Positions 1,141 to 16,667 of a stretch of DNA of 64,000 nt are shown here, piece by piece. Source of the stretch: an uncultured delta proteobacterium (GTDB lineage Bacteria > Desulfobacterota > Zymogenia > Zymogenales > Zymogenaceae). Every line of letters begins with the position of its first letter. Positions within the stretch are counted from its first letter, which is position 1. The notes under the pieces are model-generated. The model saw only the letters and a list, made by a program, of their open reading frames with translations. It did not search any database and was not told where the DNA came from. The position numbers were made by a program, and so were the translations under genes. Location of the stretch: positions 672,001 to 736,000 of the forward strand of contig CAVTLK010000002.1 in assembly GCA_963735595.1 (NCBI GenBank). The letters are read 5' to 3'.

Positions 1141-2535
1141 TTAGAAGTCGTAGGTAAGGACGTTGTTGATCATCCAGATCGGGCCCCATTCCTGGTGGGT
1201 GCCACCGACGTTATAGTCGAACGAATCGCCGGTGAAAAGCACGCCGCCCGAGAAGGTGTAGGTCAGGCCTTCCATGATAACGTACTTCACGCCGAGGTCG
1301 ATCTCCCAGCCGAGGTCCATGCTCCCGTTATACCACGGGGTGTAGGTGGTGGCGGGATTATAGTAATTCATCGGGTGACCATAGGCCCTGGTGGCGCCTA
1401 CCGGCTCGGTCCACTTGGCCCAGATGACCGCCGCGGAGAGCGTGAGCTTGCCGTCGCAGCAGAGCGGGGTGGTCTCGAAGTAGAGCTTGACCGCCGTCAG
1501 GTTCTCGATGTCGTTGGCAAAGCCGAGGCCACGGACCCAGGGGTCGTTCAGGCCGCCGCTGCCGTATCCGCCCGCGATGATGTTGCCGAAGTAGAACGCG
1601 TCGGCGAGTATGTAGTTGGCGTTCCAGACCTCGTCGTCCCAGTCGTTGTCGTTGCTGCCGCTTCCCAGGATGAAGGCAATGCCGGCACGCAGCACGTCGT
1701 TGTGATAGGAGGCGTCGAGGTAGACGTTGATCCCGCCGTTGAACGCGTTATCGACGCCGGGATAATCCTCGCGGCCGAACAGGCCGCTCACCTCGCCCTT
1801 GAGGGTGACCATTTTGGCGATCTCGCCGGTGTAGGTGATGCCCGCAAACCCGAGGTTCGCGTGCGCCCTGGGGGCAGTCGCCCCCCACCCGTGGGATATG
1901 TTGTAGCCCGTCCCGTATTTGACGTAGCCGCCGAAGAGCTCGATGGCGTGGTTCGCGTTCGGGGTGTACTTGAGGTCCAGCGCCCAGATCTCGGAATCGC
2001 GGTTATAGAATTCGCTCGCGCCGCCCGCTATAACGTTGTCGTTCCACTTGAAGTACATCGCGGATACGCCCACGGGGCCCCACTTGTTGGCCCACTTGAG
2101 GCCGTCGAGCTTGCCGAGGCTGTCGGAAAACGCGAGCCCGTACCCGAGGGTCACCGGCTGCTTGCCGACGGTGAACGTCCCGATTGTGGGCACGTTGAAT
2201 TCGAGATACGCCTTCCGAACGAATTCACCGGTGATGCTGTTGTTGATCCTGAAGTTCCTCTGCTGGCCCCAGGTGTCCTCGACGAGGTCAAACTGGACGA
2301 CGGCCTTGAGGAAGTCGCTGCTCTTGTGCGTGATGGTCAGGCGGAACCTCTGGTCGAAGTAACCGGTGTAGAGGCCCCGCTCGGACGTCGGGTCGGTGGC
2401 CTTCTTGTCGAAGTTCCAGTTCGAGAACGCCCTGATCCGGTACTGCCCGTTGAAGGTCGTTTCGGCCGCGAACAACGGGGCCGTGAAGGCGACCGTCAGG
2501 ATAACTGCTACCGCAAGAATTAATAGTCTCCTCAT
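1141..2535 (-). CDS. Outer-membrane beta-barrel/porin (alginate-export-like)
   Basis: Signal peptide, alternating aromatic/Gly beta strands, C-terminal LTYDF. Confidence 0.7.
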   Translation of the reverse strand: MRRLLILAVAVILTVAFTAPLFAAETTFNGQYRIRAFSNWNFDKKATDPTSERGLYTGYFDQRFRLTITHKSSDFLKAVVQFDLVEDTWGQQRNFRINNSITGEFVRKAYLEFNVPTIGTFTVGKQPVTLGYGLAFSDSLGKLDGLKWANKWGPVGVSAMYFKWNDNVIAGGASEFYNRDSEIWALDLKYTPNANHAIELFGGYVKYGTGYNISHGWGATAPRAHANLGFAGITYTGEIAKMVTLKGEVSGLFGREDYPGVDNAFNGGINVYLDASYHNDVLRAGIAFILGSGSNDNDWDDEVWNANYILADAFYFGNIIAGGYGSGGLNDPWVRGLGFANDIENLTAVKLYFETTPLCCDGKLTLSAAVIWAKWTEPVGATRAYGHPMNYYNPATTYTPWYNGSMDLGWEIDLGVKYVIMEGLTYTFSGGVLFTGDSFDYNVGGTHQEWGPIWMINNVLTYDF

Positions 2536-3390: not shown

Positions 3391-3589
3391 TATCGGTATT
3401 CCTTTAGATAATAATGACTGCGGCGGCCGGTGAGGCGGCGAGTGGGCGAAGGCCACCAATATCCGTATTGTAGTATATCTGCGTACAAAAGGAAATCCTA
3501 ATGTGGATGAGCAGCGGTTTTTTCGGCTTACCGATTGCCGGGCCGGCATTCCTATTGACAATTCGTGCGTTCTGATTTAGGATTTAGCC

Positions 3590-3988
3590 ATGAAGATACT
3601 ACAGAACAAACGGGGGGCTTCCGGCCTCGGCATTCTCGGCTACATCATCGCAGTAATCCTCATCCTCTGGGGATTGATCAATCTCTATTCCCTGGCGGCC
3701 CCCGGCGCGGGCAACCCCACCGGGAGGGTTATCATCGGTCTCGTGTTGATAGCCATCGGCGGCGGGCTCCTCTTCTTCATCCCGAAGTGGGAATCCCGGC
3801 GGCCCCAGCAGATAGAGATGACCCAGAAGATAGACCTGGCGGGAAACGTCAACACCGCGAAACTAAAATGCCAGAACTGCGGGGCCGATCTGGACAAAGA
3901 CAGTGTGGCGGTGAGGGCGGGGGGTATCTTCGTCAACTGCCCCTACTGCAAGAGCGCATACCAGATCACCGAGGAGCCCAAGTGGTAG
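3590..3988 (+). CDS. Two-TM membrane protein with C-terminal zinc ribbon
   Basis: Two hydrophobic segments, CQNC...CPYC. Confidence 0.75.
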   Translation: MKILQNKRGASGLGILGYIIAVILILWGLINLYSLAAPGAGNPTGRVIIGLVLIAIGGGLLFFIPKWESRRPQQIEMTQKIDLAGNVNTAKLKCQNCGADLDKDSVAVRAGGIFVNCPYCKSAYQITEEPKW

Positions 3989-4141
3989 GATGCCGGCCCC
4001 TGACCGGACCGGTCGGTTTATTCCAGCCGTGCGTTCGGTAATCGACCGGGCCTGCGGCGCATGGTACTACCGTTCCTGTTCCCGGGCACTTTCGCCGGGA
4101 TTCGTCGGATAACCGTCTGTATTCATATTGGGGAGTGAGCT

Positions 4142-5744
4142 GTGAATATAAAGAGGGTACTTCGTGTCGTCGCCCTGATATCGGCGGCCGTTGCTTTTTC
4201 CCGTCGCCCCCTCGTTTGCCCAGACCTACTATTTCTCCGTCCCGTCCAACCACTCGGACGTCTTCATCAACCAGGACGGGTCGATCACCATCTCCTACGC
4301 GATCACCTTCGCCAATGATTCCGGGGCTTCGCCCATAGACGTCGTCGACATCGGCCTGCCCAACGACAACTACGACCTGTCCACCGCAAAGGCCTGGATC
4401 GGCGATCAGCCGATCACCGAGATCTACAAATCGACCTACATCGATACGGGTGTGGAGGTGCGCCTGGGGTCCCAGAGCATCATGCCGGGCGCGACCGGCA
4501 CCCTGTACTTCCAGATCGACAACCCCCACATGGTCTACACCGACGACGAGAAGCCGGACTATGCCTCGGTGGAGTTCTCGCCCACCTGGTACGGCTCGGA
4601 TTATACCTACGGCACGACAGACGTCATGGTCAATTTCCACTTTCCCGCCGGCGTAACGGCCGAAGAGACCATCTATCATTACCGACAGTACGACACCTAT
4701 TCGTTCGACAAGGACGGGCGCATCGTCTTTACCTTCCGGGAACCCGCGGGGAGCCCGTCGTCCCAATATATGTACGGCGTCTCGTTTCCCGCGAAATACG
4801 TCACGACCGTCTTCGAGCCGTATCGCCCGCCCTTTATCCTCAAGGTGCTCGAGTTTTTCGTTGAGCATATCTTCCTCTTCTTTTTCCTAGGGATGATCGG
4901 GTTCATCGTTCTCAATCTCTTTCGCAAACGGCAGCGCAAGATGCAGTACATGCCGGCAAACGTGGCCATCGAAGGGGTGGGGATCAAGCGGGGCCTCACG
5001 GCGCCGGAGGCGGCCCTCCTCACGGATACGCCTTTGGCCAAGGTCGTCACGATGATCCTGTTCGGCCTCCTTAAAAAGGGAATCGTCCGCGTGGAGACGG
5101 TGCCGACACCCAAGGTCTTCAAGCTTGACGGCGCCGGGAGCGAGGCGCTGCGGCCGTACGAAAAGGCCTTCCTGGCCTGCGTAAAGGCCGACGGCACGCT
5201 GGACACCGGACCGCTCAAGCCGGTCATGGTGGACATGATTAAGGAAACCAATAAGGCCCTCAAGGGGTTCTCCCGCGCAGAGACCACCGACTACTACCGC
5301 GCGATCGTCGATCTGGCCTGGAAGCACGTGAAGGCCGCCAACACCCCGGAGCTGCTCGGGCAGGAGTGGGACAAACAGCTCGAGTGGACAATGATGGATA
5401 AGGACTACGACAAAAGGATGGAAGATACCTTCGACGGCCGCGACGTGGTGATGCCGAGGTGGTACGGGAACTACTCCGGGCCGGCTACGCCGGCCGAGTG
5501 CGGCGGGCGGCACAGTTTGAGATGCCCGGGGCCAAGCTCGCCAACGATATGGTCATCCTCGGTGGAGGGTTTCTCCGGTAAACTGATAACCAACGTCGAG
5601 AGCTTCGTGACCGGGGTATCGCGGGTGACCAACCCGCCGCCACAGACCAGCAGCGGCAGGAGCTCCGGCGGCGGCGGGGGCGGATGCGCCTGTGCATGCG
5701 CCTGTGCCGGATGTGCGTGCGCCTGTGCAGGGGGAGGGAGATAG
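4142..5744 (+). CDS. Membrane-anchored protein (DUF2207-like architecture) with Cys-Ala repeat C-terminus; apparent frameshifts
   Basis: GTG start after GGGGAG gives a signal-peptide-like N-terminus that shifts frame near 4190; extracellular domain, one TM, cytoplasmic domain, tail GGGGGGCACACACAGCACACAGGGR. Confidence 0.7.
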
Positions 5745-5747
5745 ACC

Positions 5748-7109
5748 ATGAAGATGTTTGACTCGATTGCCGGGCTCTTTACCAGGGAAAAACCGCTCGG
5801 TGCAGGCGTCTACCACCGCCGGGTAACCGGCGAGGACGGAAACAACTATCGGCTCCACCTGCGGGTGGAAGAGGGGGGCGCCGGGATACTCTCGATCAAC
5901 GCCGCCAAGATCCTCCACCTCAACCCGACTGCGGCGGAGCACGCCAAGCTCATCATCGAGGGCATACCGCGGGAGCAGGCCGTCAAAGAGATCACGAGGC
6001 GGTACCGGGTCGGCACGAAACAGGCCGCCGCCGACTATGACAAGCTCATGGACGTCGTCCATGCCCTCTCCTCAACCGACGACGTCTGCCCCATCTCATA
6101 TCTGGACGTCTCCCGCATCGAGCCCTTTTCCACCCCGGTGAGCGCCCCGTACCGGATGGACCTCGCCCTCACGTACCGGTGCGACAACGGCTGCGGCCAC
6201 TGCTACGTGAGCAGGGACCGCAAGGTCGCGGAGATGGATACCGCGTCCTGGAAACGGGTTATCGACCGTCTCTGGGAGATCGGCATCTACCACGTCTCGT
6301 TTACCGGAGGGGAGGCAACGCAGAGAGACGACCTGGCCCGGCTCGTGGCCCATACCCAGGACGTCGGGATGGTCTCGGGGCTGCTGACCAACGGGAGGAG
6401 GCTTTCGGACAAAAAATTCCTCAAGACCCTCGTGGACGAGGGCATCGACTATTTCCAGGTCACGCTCGAATCGGCCGACAGGTCGATCCACAACGCGATG
6501 GTCGGGACCGACGGCTGGGACCAGACCGTCGCGGGCATAAAAAACGCGGCCTCGACGGCGCTCTACACCATCACCAACACCACCATTACCCGGCATAACA
6601 TCAAAACGCTTTCCAAGACCGTCGATTTCATCGCGGGGCTGGGCGTCAACGCCTTTGCCATGAACGGCATCATCTACAGCGGCGAGGCCAAGTCGGGTAA
6701 AGACGCCGTCACCGAGAAAGAGCTCGAAACGGCGCTGCGGGAGGTGTCCGACGCGGCCGCGAGAAACAACCTGCGCTTTATCTGGTACACCCCGACCCAG
6801 TACTGCAAGCTGGACCCGATGGACCTTTCCATCGGGATCAAGCAGTGCACGGCCGGCAAGTTCAACATGCTCATCGAGCCGGACGGGACGGTGCTCCCCT
6901 GCCAGAGCTACTTTGAGCCGGTGGGAAACATCCTGAAGGACGACTGGAAGGCGATCTGGAACCACCCGCTCCTGGTATCGTTGAGGAACCGGGATTTCGT
7001 GATGGAAAAGTGCCACACCTGCGAGAAGCTCGATGTCTGCGGCGGCGGCTGCCCGCTGGAGCTGCAGAAAGACAGCTACTGCTGCCCGGACAGCCTGAGC
7101 AACCCGTAG
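5748..7109 (+). CDS. Radical SAM/SPASM protein with N-terminal PqqD/RRE-like domain
   Basis: CDNGCGHC, FTGGE, SPASM C...PDG...PC...CxxC...CGGGC; LNPTA...Y.V....A..D pattern of the RRE winged helix. Confidence 0.85.
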   Translation: MKMFDSIAGLFTREKPLGAGVYHRRVTGEDGNNYRLHLRVEEGGAGILSINAAKILHLNPTAAEHAKLIIEGIPREQAVKEITRRYRVGTKQAAADYDKLMDVVHALSSTDDVCPISYLDVSRIEPFSTPVSAPYRMDLALTYRCDNGCGHCYVSRDRKVAEMDTASWKRVIDRLWEIGIYHVSFTGGEATQRDDLARLVAHTQDVGMVSGLLTNGRRLSDKKFLKTLVDEGIDYFQVTLESADRSIHNAMVGTDGWDQTVAGIKNAASTALYTITNTTITRHNIKTLSKTVDFIAGLGVNAFAMNGIIYSGEAKSGKDAVTEKELETALREVSDAAARNNLRFIWYTPTQYCKLDPMDLSIGIKQCTAGKFNMLIEPDGTVLPCQSYFEPVGNILKDDWKAIWNHPLLVSLRNRDFVMEKCHTCEKLDVCGGGCPLELQKDSYCCPDSLSNP

Positions 7110-7176
7110 GCGATTCGAAAGGGACCGTGCCCGTCCGGGGTTTCCCAGCGAAGACGAATAAAGCCGAAAAATTACT

Positions 7177-7204
7177 AAAGCCGCCCGGAAGGTGGGCGGC
7201 TTTA
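7177..7204. terminator. Rho-independent terminator
   Basis: AAAGCCGCCC-ggaaggt-GGGCGGCTTT. Confidence 0.75.
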
Positions 7205-7245: not shown

Positions 7246-7572
7246 CTAATAGACCCTTTGCCCGTTGGCAACCTGCCGATCCACCGACAACAGCACTATC
7301 CCCGAGTAGCTGTCCACCCCGAGCACCAGAACCTCCGACCTGACGCCCGCGACCTGCTTGGGCGGGAAGTTGACCACGCAGATCACCTGCCGCCCCACCA
7401 GATCTGCCGTGGAGTAGAGCTTCGTAATCTGGGCGCTCGACATCCGCGTGCCGAGGTCGCCGAGGTCGATCTCGAGGATGTATGCGGGCTTGCGAGCCAG
7501 CTCGTTGAGCCGGGCCGACTTTATCGTCCCCACCCGCATGTCCACCGAGATGAACTCTTCGTAATCTATCAT
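7246..7572 (-). CDS. csaA: tRNA-binding/secretion chaperone CsaA
   Basis: DMRVGTI, SSAQIT, VVNFPPKQVAG.RSEVLVLG. Confidence 0.85.
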   Translation of the reverse strand: MIDYEEFISVDMRVGTIKSARLNELARKPAYILEIDLGDLGTRMSSAQITKLYSTADLVGRQVICVVNFPPKQVAGVRSEVLVLGVDSYSGIVLLSVDRQVANGQRVY

Positions 7573-7667: not shown

Positions 7668-8428
7668 ATGGCGAACGTCACGGAAGATCGGGAGCTTTCC
7701 TACCTCGGCCTCCAGGCCGGCTGGACAAGGGCCATGCGCGTCCATCTCTACCGCAGGATCGCGCTTATGGCCCGCCGGCGCATCCTTGACATCGGGTGCG
7801 CCGATGGATTGATAACCGCCGAGATCGCGGCGCGGACCCGGGGAGAGGTCATCGGAATCGATATCCGCCCCGAACGGGTCGGCGAGGCCCGCAGGAACCA
7901 CCCGGACATCGACTTTCGGGCGGCCGACGCCCATGAGCTTCCGTTTGACGACGGGGCGTTTGACGCGGTAATCACCAACTTCACCCTGATGTGGACGGAG
8001 CGCCCCGGCCGGGCGATGGCCGAGGCCGCGAGGGTCCTGAAAAGCGGGGGGGCGTTCCTCGCGTCGGGCGAGCCCGATTACGGCGGCAGGATCGACGAGC
8101 CGGGGTCCCTCTCGGCGCTTACCGGGGCCTGGGCCGAATCAATCGGGGCCGACGGGGGCGACCCCTTCTTCGGGCGGCGGCTGAAGGGCCTCCTTGCCGG
8201 ATCGGGCCTTCGGTCGGTGGAGGTCGGGGTAATACCGTCGGTATGGGAGCCATCGCCGGGCGATGAGCTTGAGGCGTACCTGGATTGTCTGAGGTATTTG
8301 TTTTACGGCCGGGTCCCCGGGGGGGGCTTGACATAGACGAGATTATCAAGCGCGAGCGGCAGGCCGCCCGCTCCGGGGCGCGCCTGGTCTTCCTGCCGAT
8401 CTTCTGGGGGATCGGGGAAAAGCCGTGA
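7668..8428 (+). CDS. Class I SAM-dependent methyltransferase (frameshift in G-run near 8320)
   Basis: ILDIGCADG, DAHELPFDDGAFD; plausible C-terminus continues in another frame to TGA at 8426-8428. Confidence 0.75.
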
Positions 8429-8500
8429 AAAGCGATCGCGCCGCCGCGCCCGGCCGGAACTCTCCCGTCATGGTGTCCCGTCCGGCGGGATACAAACCCG

Positions 8501-10826
8501 TCAATCTGCCCTGTCCGTCAGTCTGGCGGGCCTTTCCGGTTGTTTCCTGCGGTTTTTTCTCGGCAGGAACGTCACAAGCCCTGCCGGCAGGAGAAACAGG
8601 TCGCCGAAGATCGCCGTGATCATCGTAATCCCCGAAAGGAGGCCGAAATACGTCGTCGGCCTGAAGCTCGCAAACAACAGGCACCAGAAGCCCAGCACGA
8701 GGGTGAGCGACGTGATGACCGCGGCCCTGCCGGTCGTCCTGAACGTGGTGGCGATCGCCTCCTCGTGGGAGGCGCCCGCCCGTACCTCGTGCCGGAAGCG
8801 GCTGAGGAAATGGATCGTGTCGTCCACCGCGATACCCGTGGCCACCGAGGCGATCATCACCGTTGCGGTATCGAGGTTTATCCCGAACAGGCCCATCGCC
8901 CCCATCGTCATCGCCACGGGGATGATATTGGGGATGATGGAAATCAGCCCCAGACGGACGGAGCGGAGCTGGAGGGCCAGGATGAAAAAGATCACCAGAA
9001 ACGACGTGGTGAACGAGGATATCTGGCTCTGGATTATGTAATCGACCATGTGGACATAGAGCGGTATTATGCCGGTGACGCGCCCCGTCAGCCCCTCGGG
9101 GAGGTTTGCCGAAAAGTAGTCGTCGAACTTCTTGATGAGCCGCTTGGAGGTATTGGAGGTCAGACCTCCCGCCGCGCACGCTGACCCGCAGCTCGGAGGC
9201 GTCGAAGTTGACGAAGTAGTCCAGCTCCCCTTCCTGGGAGGTCTCGTAGAGGAGGAGGAGCTGCGCGACGCCCTCCCGCGAGTCGGGGATGGAGTAACGC
9301 TCCGGGTCGTTGTTGAAGAACGCCATGTTCAGCCGCTTAATAAGATCGGTGGCGGCAACCGAGGTGGAGACGTTGGGATCGGTCAGGACAAAGCGCTGGA
9401 ATTTCTCGACTGCAACGAGCGTCCGGGGGTCGTGGGCGCTGCCCGGCTCCCCCGCGATAACCACCTCAACCGGCGAAATATGCCCGAAGTTCTTCTCGAT
9501 AAAACCGTAGGCGTAGCGCAGCGGCTGGCCCTTTTTGAGATAGTCCAGGTTTTGCGTTTCGACCGTGATCCTGGTGATAAAAAAGACCGAGACGGCAAAG
9601 AGGAGCGCGCCGACGATAAGGATAGGCACCGGGTGCCTCAGGTCGAAACGGCAGATAGCGGCGGTGAGCCGGTCGATGATGCCGCCGGCGCGGTGGGCTT
9701 TCGCCCGCGGCTTAGGCCTCGGCATCAGGCTCAGCGCGATCGGGACAAACGTGACGTTGAGGATATAGGCAATGGAGAGCCCCAGCCCGGAAAAAAGGCC
9801 GATCTCGCGCAGGGGAACGATCTTGGCAAAGAGAAATGAGGAAAACCCGACGATGGTCGTTATGGCGGTCATCAGGCATGGCGTCCCCAACAGGCCGATT
9901 GTCTCAACGACAGCGGCCCTCCGATCCATACCCGCACCGATATCGTCCAGGTAGTGGCTGGTGATGTGGATGCTGTCCGATACGCCGATGACCATGACGA
10001 GGGGGGGCACCATCGTGGTGATCAGGCTCATGGTAAAGCCGAGGGCGTTGTATATCCCCATCGAGATGATGACGCTGGAGGCCATCGAAAGGGTGGATAG
10101 GATCGACGTCGACCAGCGACCCATCAGGAAATACAGGACAAAGATGTTAAGGAAGATGGTCAGGGGAATAAAGACGTTGAGATCCCGGAAGGTGAGGGCG
10201 TTCATGTCCACGTTGAGGACGGGGATGCCGGCGACGTAAAGGGTATCGCCCCACAACGTTTCGTATTTCTCCGCGACCGCCCGGACCTCGCCCACGATAC
10301 GGGGCCGCTCCTGGTCCATGGAGCCGGCCTGTTCAAGCCGCGCGGTGATGAGGGCGGTTGTGGCGTCCTCCGAAATCAGCGTCCCGATAAAAAGCGGGTT
10401 ACTGAAGACGCGCGTTCTGAGCTCGGCTAACTCCTTGTCGGACCGGGGGATTTCACCGGTTAGCTTTTCGATTACGATGCCGTCCGTTGTCCCCCAGACA
10501 TCGACCGAATCGGTAATGCTGGCGACCCGCGAGACCCCGTCGATCTTCGCCAGGTCGGTCCCGATGTCGCGGATGATCTCGAGGTCGCGCGTATTGAAAA
10601 CGCCCCGCTCGTCCTTAAGAGCGATCACGACGAACTCGTCGCCCCCGAATGTCTCCTCGAACCGGTCATAGTCGGCAAGGTTCGGATCGTCGCTGACGAA
10701 ATAGATGCGGACGGCGTTGTTGATCCGCATGTCCCTGGCTTCGTGGATCGAGAAAGCCAGGATGACGATAAAGGCCGCCAGGATCGGCCAGCGCCACGCG
10801 AGCACCAGCTCGGCGAATTTCTTCAT
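8501..10826 (-). CDS. MMPL/RND-family transporter (frameshift near 9140)
   Basis: Two repeats with GVSDSIH / GIAVDDTIHF motifs split over ORFs 8346..10826 and 8501..9049. Confidence 0.85.
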
Positions 10827-15457: not shown

Positions 15458-16667
15458 ATGATGGTCTACATCAATTTCCCGCAACGGATCAAGAAGATCC
15501 AGGAAGAGCTGGCGGCAAAGGGCGTGGACGTCCTGGTCGGCACGCGGCTCAAAACCATCACCCACTGGTCGGGCGGGTTCGTCCCGTGGCGCAGCGCGCT
15601 GATCATCCCGGCCAAGGGAGAGCCGACCCTGATCACCCCGCTTCTGGACTCCGGCCGCCTTGCCAGCGAGAGCTGGATAACCGACGTGTCGGGTTACGGG
15701 GCGCTGCCGGGTATCGACTTTTTCGACGTGATCAAGATGAAGATCGCCGACATCGCCACCGACGGCGGCACCATCGGTATCGAGGACGGCACCACCAATT
15801 ACCTGCCCGAGGGATTCATCACCAACCACGAGTACCAGACCCTGAAGGCCATGTTCCCCAAGGCGGAGCTGGTCAACTGCGCGGACATTACCGACCGGCT
15901 CTGCATCATCAAGGAGCCGGCCGAGATCAAGCTGATGCGGCAGGCCACCGCCATCGTTGACAAGGCCCACGAGGCGGTCAGGCAGAATCTGCGCCATCGG
16001 GATGAGCGAAAAGCAGATCGCCGGCATTGCCGAGAAGGTGATGCGGGACGCCGGCAGCGAGTTTGCCTGGACGTTCACCGGCGGCCAGGAGATCGCCACG
16101 GGCGAGCGGACCTGGTGGCCGCTGGGCGGCTGCACGCCGGCAACCGACCGCCTTGTTCAGCTCGGGGAGCCGGTGCTGGTGGACCTGCACGGGATGTACG
16201 GCCTCTTTTTGGGGGACGTCTCCCACAACTATATCATGGGCAGGCCCACCAAGGAGCAGCGGGAGACGATGACCGCCTACACCGAGACGGCCTATAAAGT
16301 CATCGATGAGATGAAGCCGGGTAAATCCCTCAAGGAGGTCACGCTGACCGTCCACGAGTTCGTGGCCAAGAACAACTGGAGCGCCTGGGTGCTGCCGGGC
16401 TACGGCCACGGGATCGGGCACCTGGGCAACGAATGGTACCCCTGCGTAGCGGACACTCCGTCTCCCGGCAACAACGAACCGGACTTCATCCTGGAGCCGG
16501 GGTACATGCAGATGATTGCGGTCGTCTGCAACCGGCCGGGCGCGGCGGGGTTCCGGCTGGAACGGCCGCTGGTGATCACCGAGACCGGAAACGAGGTGCT
16601 CAGTAAACTCCCCATCGAGCCGGGGGTCATCGAGTGCGACACGGGGATGGTGTTTCGGGACAGATAG
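15458..16667 (+). CDS. M24 (Xaa-Pro peptidase/creatinase) family protein (frameshift near 15990)
   Basis: Creatinase_N domain, IKEPAEI..MR.A, GHGIG, GFRLE split over two ORFs. Confidence 0.8.

Follow-up and report, generated by a model that had tools for sequence, protein, structure and literature searches.

The locus considered here raises the question of whether the substrate of a radical SAM enzyme may be the C-terminal end of an integral membrane protein. In the window (the whole stretch of 64,000 nucleotides analysed, from an uncultured delta proteobacterium), an initial annotation had noted a membrane protein ending in a 7-cysteine tail, CACACACAGCACACAGGGR, after a Pro/Ser/Gly linker, and a radical SAM gene beginning three bases later; both observations hold, the tail occupying 5685-5741, its stop codon 5742-5744, and the enzyme starting with the ATG at 5748. 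We describe the unit as a cassette of four genes, two for membrane proteins (one with a zinc ribbon, the other DUF2207-like and single-pass) and two for an RRE-radical SAM/SPASM enzyme and a methyltransferase, and propose, with a probability of roughly 0.5, that the radical SAM enzyme acts on the tail in the cytoplasm, several cysteine thioether crosslinks being the likeliest product. On sequence grounds, modification of the cytoplasmic tail by this enzyme is probable; that the modification consists of thioether crosslinks is an evenly balanced prediction. The features concerned are as follows.

3555..3583, + strand: sigma-70-like promoter match TTGACA-17-TAGGAT, 5' of the first gene (consensus match only, 10/12)
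3590..3988, + strand: 132-residue protein; two hydrophobic segments, a zinc ribbon (CxxC...CxxC) in the C-terminal part, conserved terminal PKW (homologues)
4142..5744 (open frame as assembled, 4191-5744), + strand: single-pass membrane protein with Cys-Ala tail (homologues, model)
4833..4940, + strand: membrane helix (approximate), then a basic RKRQRK stretch (helix at residues 232-267 of the P0006 homologue model; hydropathy)
5685..5741, + strand: 19-residue tail CACACACAGCACACAGGGR, candidate substrate (conservation among homologues)
5748..7109, + strand: RRE-radical SAM-SPASM enzyme, 453 residues (domain matches, model)
7176..7204, no strand: terminator-like hairpin, scored on both strands, between the enzyme gene and the convergent gene
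7246..7572, - strand: tRNA-binding-domain (CsaA-like) gene between the enzyme and methyltransferase genes (Pfam tRNA_bind)
7668..8428, + strand: class I SAM methyltransferase, belonging to the cassette's own clade (homologues)

The unit had originally been delimited at 3590-7109; the genes within that span belong to it, but the end at 7109 does not stand, since the methyltransferase gene, overlooked at first, also belongs. The intervening CsaA-like gene was absent from the conserved neighbour clusters examined (the 22 largest). Contigs of close relatives lack the bases at 4194, 5514 and 5556, and close relatives are without one base near 5488; because of these private indels, the open frame as assembled falls short of the signal peptide and is scrambled at about 5490-5556. 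The membrane protein gene most likely starts, with its signal peptide, at GTG 4142. The last 35 or so codons of the methyltransferase gene are likewise out of frame, with 2 extra bases near 8319.

The membrane protein, about 535 residues long in relatives, comprises a signal peptide, an outer beta-sandwich domain with the fold of M1-aminopeptidase N-terminal domains and ribophorin I, one membrane helix, a DUF2207_C-like cytoplasmic domain, a Gly/Ser linker and the Cys-Ala tail; in P0006, an intact relative, the cytoplasmic domain and tail together span approximately residues 268-535. Homologues and the structural model indicate a conserved, folded body; the signal peptide and single helix are predicted to place the disordered tail in the cytoplasm beside the enzyme, and the model thereby backs the cytoplasmic location suggested earlier. 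No part of the protein is better conserved than the tail (column conservation 0.996, against 0.588, or about 0.59, in the body), which is identical in 99 of the 120 best homologues, the window's own counted. Six-frame scanning of the 3.63 Mb genome found its motif at a single site, and a reversed-pattern control matched none of the 201 genomes of a Chloroflexota sample and none of the 301 of a Bacillota sample. Neither Pfam nor NCBIfam yielded a family named for the membrane protein: PF09972/PF20990 exceeded the cut-off in 0 of 72 class I proteins, and one class II protein scored 17.6 against 24.4 bits. Comparison of its cytoplasmic domain with DUF2207_C gave TM values of 0.57-0.67 between predicted models and a feature score of 0.90; by this modelled cytoplasmic fold the protein is a distant DUF2207/YciQ relative, outside the curated membership.

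Domain searches bore out the PqqD-like N-terminus and radical SAM/SPASM organization first read from the translation: PqqD matched at 23.6 bits (cut-off 23.4), together with Radical_SAM and SPASM, and in the model of an 85%-identical relative the RRE (approximately residues 33-109) forms three strands followed by three helices. The CxxxCxxC cysteines (C145, C149 and C152) are invariant in all 63 class I sequences, a set selected by that motif. Cysteines of the SPASM region lie at 353, 367, 385, 422, 425, 431, 435 and 446/447, and the seven-cysteine SPASM motif CX9-15GX4C-gap-CX2CX5CX3C-gap-C is present (C367-X12-G380-X4-C385, C422, C425, C431, C435, C446/447), its last cysteine being kept in 28 of the 59 class I enzymes that are complete. 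The linker cysteine C353 occurs in 98% of class I enzymes; C114 (84%) and C375 (79%) are also conserved, the window's own enzyme having Leu at 375. Active-site residues Y153, T186, Q237, T239, Q386 and S387 are invariant (62-63 of 63 and 24 of 24) across two divergent versions of the system, which also have the tail core and outer domain in common and differ in gene order and cytoplasmic domain.

Among solved structures, the fold nearest to the enzyme is that of the sactisynthase SkfB, the epimerase EpeE ranking far below SkfB and SuiB; the best PDB sequence match is PqqE, not SkfB. At the five assignable positions (all but position 3) of six catalytic-proximity residues defined in PMC10288494, the enzyme (Y,T,T,Q,S) is closest to SkfB (Y,T,S,Q,L), compared with PqqE (S,S,S,H,A), SuiB (F,L,S,I,A) and CteB (F,F,S,H,Q). 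Scores stayed below every thioether-synthase family cut-off, including those of SkfB (79.6 vs 300 bits), StsB (81.8 vs 625) and AlbA (57.9 vs 850). In SuiB the linker supplies a fourth ligand to Aux I and the site is filled, whereas the CteB and SkfB sites are open (PMC6231123). The enzyme has four candidate cysteines (353, 367, 385 and 435) as in SuiB, with C353 at about the place of SuiB's linker ligand, which would favour non-thioether chemistry; SkfB, where an extra cysteine is non-ligating, shows that cysteine count cannot settle ligation. A cluster-less enzyme paralogue occurs at about 28 of the 49 class I loci (a few frameshift fragments counted in), and the enzyme tree, with only four distant own-genome outgroups, joins classes I, II and this paralogue with support 0.92. 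A predicted complex of enzyme and cytoplasmic domain, with clusters and SAM, scored 0.38, against 0.37 for one control, and is given no weight in either direction.

Tail-bearing homologues usually have the enzyme as a neighbour, as had been anticipated: an intact enzyme gene lies within 6 kb at 69 of 79 distinct tail loci and a cut or frameshifted one at 3 more, and all five checked tail loci without an adjoining enzyme gene have the enzyme elsewhere in the genome. In the reverse direction, each of the 10 metagenome loci whose enzyme is at least 47% identical has a tail just upstream. The enzyme occurs in 17 of the 201 Chloroflexota genomes and the tail in the same 17; of 41 relatives, the same 10 have the enzyme, the membrane protein and the methyltransferase. 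In the Bacillota sample the tail marks the same genomes as the enzyme (7 of 301), and the 6 of these without the exact tail pattern all carry a variant Cys-Ala tail gene directly 3' of the enzyme gene. These counts are not independent events, because the sampled genomes are related; the co-occurrence shows that tail and enzyme share a pathway and says nothing about which partner is the substrate, or about the reaction. By estimate, the exact core motif is present in some 2400 stretches of a species-level genome collection, its carriers including Chloroflexota, gut Clostridia, Planctomycetota, Thermoplasmatota and Asgard archaea, with Ornatilinea apprima (L092) and Gemmiger formicilis (L093) as cultured examples; the named carriers are mostly anaerobes.

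The absence of a short precursor gene remarked on at the outset extends to all 79 loci, across which there is no conserved short ORF. A hidden short precursor was rejected, since the 15 largest clusters of small ORFs look like shadows cast by larger genes in other frames and the Cys-rich sequence ends a 535-residue membrane protein. Enzyme co-occurrence and cytoplasmic placement in the model support the view, put forward in the initial annotation, that the membrane protein's tail is the enzyme's substrate; the sacti/ranthi-type crosslinks or metal site suggested there are candidate outcomes.

Two further products accompany this pair. The methyltransferase gene is near 25 of 49 loci with tails ending GGGR-stop, compared with 0 of 30 with tails running on, and was not found in 12 genomes with tails continuing past GGG, a contrast that represents one lineage because all 12 methyltransferase-free genomes are Bacillota. 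Among archaea there are tail variants ending GGAG or GGAR. There are exceptions: a class I genome (G556) without a methyltransferase match, one (G555) with a weak match, and one (G047) having a methyltransferase and no cassette. The best PDB match of the methyltransferase is LahSB (E 7e-10, residues 29-131, the generic SAM-binding core only), a C-terminal carboxyl methyltransferase (PMC11285071); by analogy, it may cap the free C-terminus of the tail. Identification as ArsM was rejected (42 vs 263 bits; no invariant cysteine in the methyltransferase). A homologue of the zinc-ribbon protein, which gives sub-threshold zinc-ribbon Pfam matches only, is encoded at 41 of 49 class I loci, with the PKW end in 40 of 41, and at 0 of 30 class II loci. 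Of 26 class II membrane proteins, 10 have an internal zinc ribbon; we do not claim fusion of the stand-alone protein into these, homology being undetected (E 0.08 or worse).

How the cassette might work can be outlined from these parts. The RRE, or a larger surface, would dock the enzyme on the cytoplasmic domain; a 5'-deoxyadenosyl radical would take hydrogen from an Ala or Gly carbon, and a tail cysteine sulfur would capture that carbon, giving either the S-C-alpha link made by SkfB or an S-C-beta link. As CACAC units vary in number and spacing, processing would proceed motif by motif and not as a fixed nested hairpin. Like LahSB with its peptides, the methyltransferase would place an ester on the carboxyl group that is free at the C-terminal Arg. 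In what is the weakest step, the tail would stay attached and provide an envelope sensor or scaffold with a rigid or metal-binding module, the zinc-ribbon protein acting as a partner in the membrane.

Other accounts draw on the same evidence. The enzyme could act on the tail without crosslinking it, epimerizing alternate residues (L to D) or oxidizing or desulfurizing cysteines to give a defined shape: proteusin epimerases act on alternating Ala/Gly-rich peptides, anSME oxidizes a protein cysteine, and the strict two-residue alternation of small residues, an Aux I possibly saturated by C353, and conserved C114 and C375 that could donate hydrogen would all suit such chemistry. We consider it unlikely, given the low rank of EpeE in the fold search, the Leu at 375 in the window's own enzyme, and an invariance of cysteine, not of any small residue, that better suits sulfur chemistry. 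Arrays of the form CxCxCxC can bind soft metals, and the tail might be an unmodified metal, metalloid or Fe-S carrier, holding a cofactor or an As/Hg-type substrate for the enzyme and methyltransferase or taking a cluster from the enzyme. The zinc-ribbon partner, the cluster-less paralogue and the predominance of anaerobes among named carriers are in keeping with this role, which is nevertheless rather improbable: the RRE fold indicates a peptide substrate, the invariance of Ala and GGGR exceeds the needs of metal binding, the methyltransferase lacks an invariant cysteine and falls far below ArsM cut-offs, and the conserved neighbour clusters examined include no metal-transport or ars genes.

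Cleavage and release of the modified tail as a small RiPP, with the membrane protein serving as an oversized leader, would fit the flexible Gly/Ser linker predicted to precede the tail and the classification of the tail as a sacti/ranthipeptide precursor by a published predictor (supplement of PMC10288494, group 40). The conservation and folding of the protein body, the neighbour clusters examined (in which no protease or exporter is conserved), and two Bacillota proteins in which the motif is internal and followed by a further hydrophobic segment (with a TPM domain in the one scanned) make this quite improbable. A still smaller chance attaches to the true substrate being a small molecule or another cassette product, such as the zinc-ribbon protein with its PKW end, and the tail only a docking or redox arm; the PKW end in 40 of 41 homologues and the SuiB-like cysteine layout speak for it, but 30 class II loci keep tail, enzyme and active-site residues, with no zinc-ribbon homologue found. 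That the repeat comes from DNA slippage or is low-complexity noise in an incidental neighbourhood is scarcely credible despite its 6-base period and the nearby indel errors in the assembly: it is conserved across bacteria and archaea with matched presence and absence, and one 10-residue core has 119 DNA spellings among 121 loci. The Cys and Ala codons of the window's tail are mixed, as originally pointed out, and a microsatellite was rejected on these varied spellings.

Enzymatic crosslinking of the tail, the reading we prefer, has partial precedents. The RRE-SPASM/Twitch sacti- and ranthisynthases SkfB, CteB, AlbA, StsB and PapB likewise combine an RRE, a radical SAM domain and an auxiliary-cluster domain with a Cys-rich partner encoded next door, SkfB being the best fold match, with active-site residues that look similar; the partners of these synthases are short leader-core peptides, whereas the partner here is a 535-residue membrane protein and the enzyme has an extra linker cysteine. 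In Methanococcus voltae, the RRE-SPASM enzyme CrpC (TIGR04463) acts on a whole protein, CrpA, and was shown to install thioethers motif by motif in its Cys-rich C-terminal part (PMC13692751). CrpA differs in its size of 29 kDa and in having ten repeats of a 17-residue motif (PMC13692751); neither the Cys-Ala tail nor the term DUF2207 was found in three text supplements of that paper, and TIGR04463 was not among the best 25 of 74 family matches. Group 40 ('Other Uncharacterized') of PMC10288494 (2023) contains three C-terminal fragments of this membrane protein family, each with a radical SAM enzyme and predicted to be sacti/ranthipeptide precursors. These are short fragments, with no experiment in the portion of that source consulted; because its pipeline dropped genes above 600 bp as false positives, that portion does not describe the whole membrane protein, the other genes or their range.

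Proteins of TIGR04222, paired with MNIO (DUF692) enzymes, similarly are membrane proteins whose C-terminal segment, rich in Gly/Ser and Cys, has been proposed to be a RiPP-type enzyme substrate, but differ in enzyme class, in having no signal peptide, several membrane segments and a predicted periplasmic tail, and in their diverse sequences (PMC12452194). Weak TIGR04222 similarity was detected in the cytoplasmic domain of 13 of 72 homologues at E<0.01 (14.2 bits for the window's protein, cut-off 43), and no MNIO-like cluster occurred among the 22 largest neighbour clusters. DUF2207/YciQ-like proteins share the modelled cytoplasmic DUF2207_C fold and are set apart by the invariant Cys-Ala tail and radical SAM partner found here. 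LahSB (PDB 6UAK; PMC11285071), the best PDB sequence match of the methyltransferase, would fit through leader-independent methylation of a free C-terminus, albeit with the match confined to the SAM-binding core. No description of the system was found in curated families or in the paper texts searched, a search that most subscription literature lay outside.

Radical SAM modification of whole proteins has been shown in few cases, and in none on an integral membrane protein in the literature consulted. It is tempting, if somewhat unlikely in full, to envisage a widespread bacterial and archaeal pathway that builds a new polycyclic Cys-Ala structure, methyl-capped and of a chemistry so far unseen among RiPPs, on the cytoplasmic end of an integral membrane receptor as a permanently tethered cofactor or metal site, which in Chloroflexota a cluster-less enzyme copy might read or chaperone. 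With a candidate substrate of just 19 residues that hardly varies, one co-expression could reveal the chemistry. If the proposal is true, precursor filters that drop genes above 600 bp miss a class of substrate, and the cassette would provide the first biochemical handle on the DUF2207-like family.

The Cys-Ala tail that forms the last 19 residues of a single-pass, DUF2207-like membrane protein is encoded in a cassette whose fourth gene, a methyltransferase, was recognised by clustering of neighbour genes:

3590-3988, + strand: zinc-ribbon gene, co-oriented with the next two genes
4191-5744, + strand: membrane protein gene, open frame as assembled, ending CACACACAGCACACAGGGR-stop
5748-7109, + strand: enzyme gene (453 aa; PqqD, Radical_SAM and SPASM matches)
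7668-8428, + strand: methyltransferase, member of the neighbour cluster, with a frameshift near 8319

As the initial annotation had it, the tail ends the membrane protein and the enzyme begins three bases on, its ATG following the stop of the tail gene at that distance in the window sequence; the domain matches likewise confirm a PqqD-like N-terminus on a radical SAM/SPASM protein. A genome scan placed the Cys-Ala motif at this single site in the window's genome. The membrane protein gene carries private indels: 4194, 5514 and 5556 each have a base absent from close relatives' contigs, and a base near 5488 is absent in two close loci. A second reading frame yields FEMPGAKLANDMV, matching homologues, and the start is likely the GTG at 4142, with a signal peptide. 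Because other window genes also look frameshifted and relatives are intact, these indels are probably long-read errors; they leave tail and enzyme untouched. Two genes at 8346-10826 and 15458-16667, read by eye as presumably an RND/MMPL-like transporter and an M24-like peptidase, are apparently frameshifted, which fits an indel-prone assembly. On the opposite strand, 1141-2535 (-) encodes a 464-aa secreted protein ending in Phe and without Pfam match; it looks like an outer-membrane beta-barrel, in which case the tail protein's outer domain would be periplasmic.

Homologues numbered 2202; among the best 120, listed at 32-100% identity, 99 repeat the same 19 tail residues and all share the CACAGGGR end. 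Mean column conservation in a 72-sequence alignment was 0.996 for the tail vs 0.588 for the body. The 10-residue core has 119 different DNA spellings among 121 loci, upholding the earlier view that this is not a simple DNA microsatellite; sequence comparison indicates that the tail is under protein-level selection. Below E = 1e-30, a profile search gave 459 clusters (50% identity), and among the best 150 a Cys-x-Cys-x-Cys tail was present in 136, a shorter tail in one and none in 13, most of which end within the body and appear truncated or frameshifted. Variants differ in unit number and spacing (4+3, 3+4, 5+3, no break, VS or AS spacers). Four loci with the 3+4 form, CACACAGCACACACAGGGR or shorter (L002, L013, L037, L041), have the enzyme upstream, a different pre-tail sequence and enzymes of one subclade (support 0.92). 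Two Bacillota proteins (L158:1864-3939 (-); L162:1943-3784 (-)) carry the motif internally, with a hydrophobic segment and one more domain beyond it; that domain is TPM in L162 (31 bits against a Pfam cut-off of 22.1). These may be fusions or read-through errors.

A scan with the tail core only, covering 4 of the 64 parts into which the genome collection is divided, yielded the 121 loci (about 2400 stretches estimated overall); 80 had flanks, and 79 were analysed after removal of one duplicate. The co-occurrence of tail and enzyme clade that had been proposed as a check was found in both classes. Class I, the window's type with tail ending GGGR-stop (n=49), has an intact enzyme within 6 kb in 43 loci, the zinc-ribbon gene in 41 and a second, cluster-less enzyme copy in about 28. 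Six class I loci lack a neighbouring enzyme: genome-wide searches for five found it in all five (49-55% identity), and in the sixth the contig stops 121 bases beyond the tail. Class II, nearly all from Clostridia (n=30), has a tail continuing as GGGRAGC; the enzyme is intact in 26, cut or frameshifted in three, and one contig is cut. In genome samples, where related genomes make counts non-independent, enzyme and tail occurred in the same 17 of 201 Chloroflexota, and enzyme and membrane protein in the same 10 of 41 relatives, all from the window's family. Among 301 Bacillota genomes the exact tail pattern occurred in one and the enzyme in seven; in all six apparent exceptions the next gene has a variant tail, CVSCACACVSCACACACAGG.GAGC. 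Of 15 metagenome loci found via the enzyme, the 10 at ≥47% identity all have the tail; the others comprise one class II locus with tail, two cluster-less paralogues and two weak partial matches without tail. By record titles, the link persists across about ten phyla, archaea included.

The methyltransferase lies near 25/49 class I vs 0/30 class II loci. Every one of the 17 Chloroflexota carriers has it, as do one non-carrier and all 10 cassette-bearing genomes of the window's family; where the enzyme is displaced from the tail gene, it goes with the enzyme (4/4). Searches of 12 genomes whose tails are all of the run-on type, every one of them Bacillota, turned up no copy, and a Chloroflexota genome that has a class II locus carries the gene adjoining a class I cassette. 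Eight further class I genomes gave five clear matches, one weak match, one divergent neighbour only and one without any. The best PDB match of the methyltransferase is LahSB, described as a C-terminal carboxyl methyltransferase working without leader (PMC11285071). The cluster-less enzyme paralogue, which keeps the RRE and has lost CxxxCxxC and the SPASM Cys (class I, e.g. L066:7393-8559), goes with the cassette at most Chloroflexota loci and in L013 shares a reading frame with the membrane protein; the window's genome has no such paralogue. A 115-aa stand-alone PAS-like protein occurs in the cassette region of L050 (8430-8777) and 10 other Anaerolineae loci, and in G551, the Chloroflexota genome of L018, there are three cassettes, two of class I and one of class II, with several genes frameshifted.

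The membrane protein homologues reach no Pfam or NCBIfam family. The model of an intact homologue, P0006 (pLDDT 86), has an N-terminal helix (1-27; a putative signal peptide), a beta domain (28-225), and a long membrane helix (232-267) with basic residues after it; the cytoplasmic domain that comes next is helical and the tail disordered. Structure comparison relates its outer domain to ribophorin I and M1 aminopeptidase N-terminal domains, and the inner domain to DUF2207_C models. Class II proteins have this outer domain too, with a reduced cytoplasmic part; 10 of 26 (including L004, L011, L019, L023) carry an internal CxxC...CxxC ribbon in the place of class I's separate zinc-ribbon gene, with no homology detected between ribbon and stand-alone protein.

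The modelling predicts that tail and enzyme lie together in the cytoplasm, and we consider it probable (about 0.8) that the enzyme acts on the tail. A conserved short precursor ORF was sought at cassette loci and none was found, in agreement with the absence first noted. The enzyme model (pLDDT 85) contains the RRE fold and lies closest to SkfB, then SuiB and PqqE; by sequence the PDB order is PqqE, SkfB, SuiB. Y153, T186, Q237, T239, Q386 and S387 do not vary in either class. Compared at five of the six positions defined in PMC10288494, they most resemble SkfB; it counts against the SkfB-like reading that C353, a Cys of the linker, could occupy Aux I in the manner of SuiB (PMC6231123). The class II enzyme lacks the second auxiliary-cluster motif. 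C114 and/or C446/447 (window ~6087; 7083-7088) are present in 58/59 complete class I enzymes and may stand in for each other as fourth Aux II ligand.

As likeliest chemistry, at about even odds, the enzyme would form thioethers on the tail unit by unit. Epimerisation of tail residues or oxidation of Cys is unlikely, and a tail serving as unmodified metal or cluster carrier slightly more so. Release of the modified tail as a peptide appears improbable, and action of the enzyme on another substrate marginally less probable again. The role of the modified product is the least supported step.

In PMC13692751, the radical SAM enzyme CrpC is shown to install thioethers into the whole protein CrpA, and by analogy the cassette enzyme would likewise modify a whole protein; PMC12452194 proposes MNIO enzymes as modifying Cys-rich tails of TIGR04222 membrane proteins, a parallel in the proposed substrate. 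The cassette belongs to neither family. Three fragments of this tail family stand in the PMC10288494 spreadsheet under 'Other Uncharacterized', group 40, and that pipeline dropped genes > 600 bp; the searched paper texts gave no description of the Cys-Ala tail cassette as a system. The cassette is real, widespread and uncharacterised, and would represent a RiPP-like modification of a protein.
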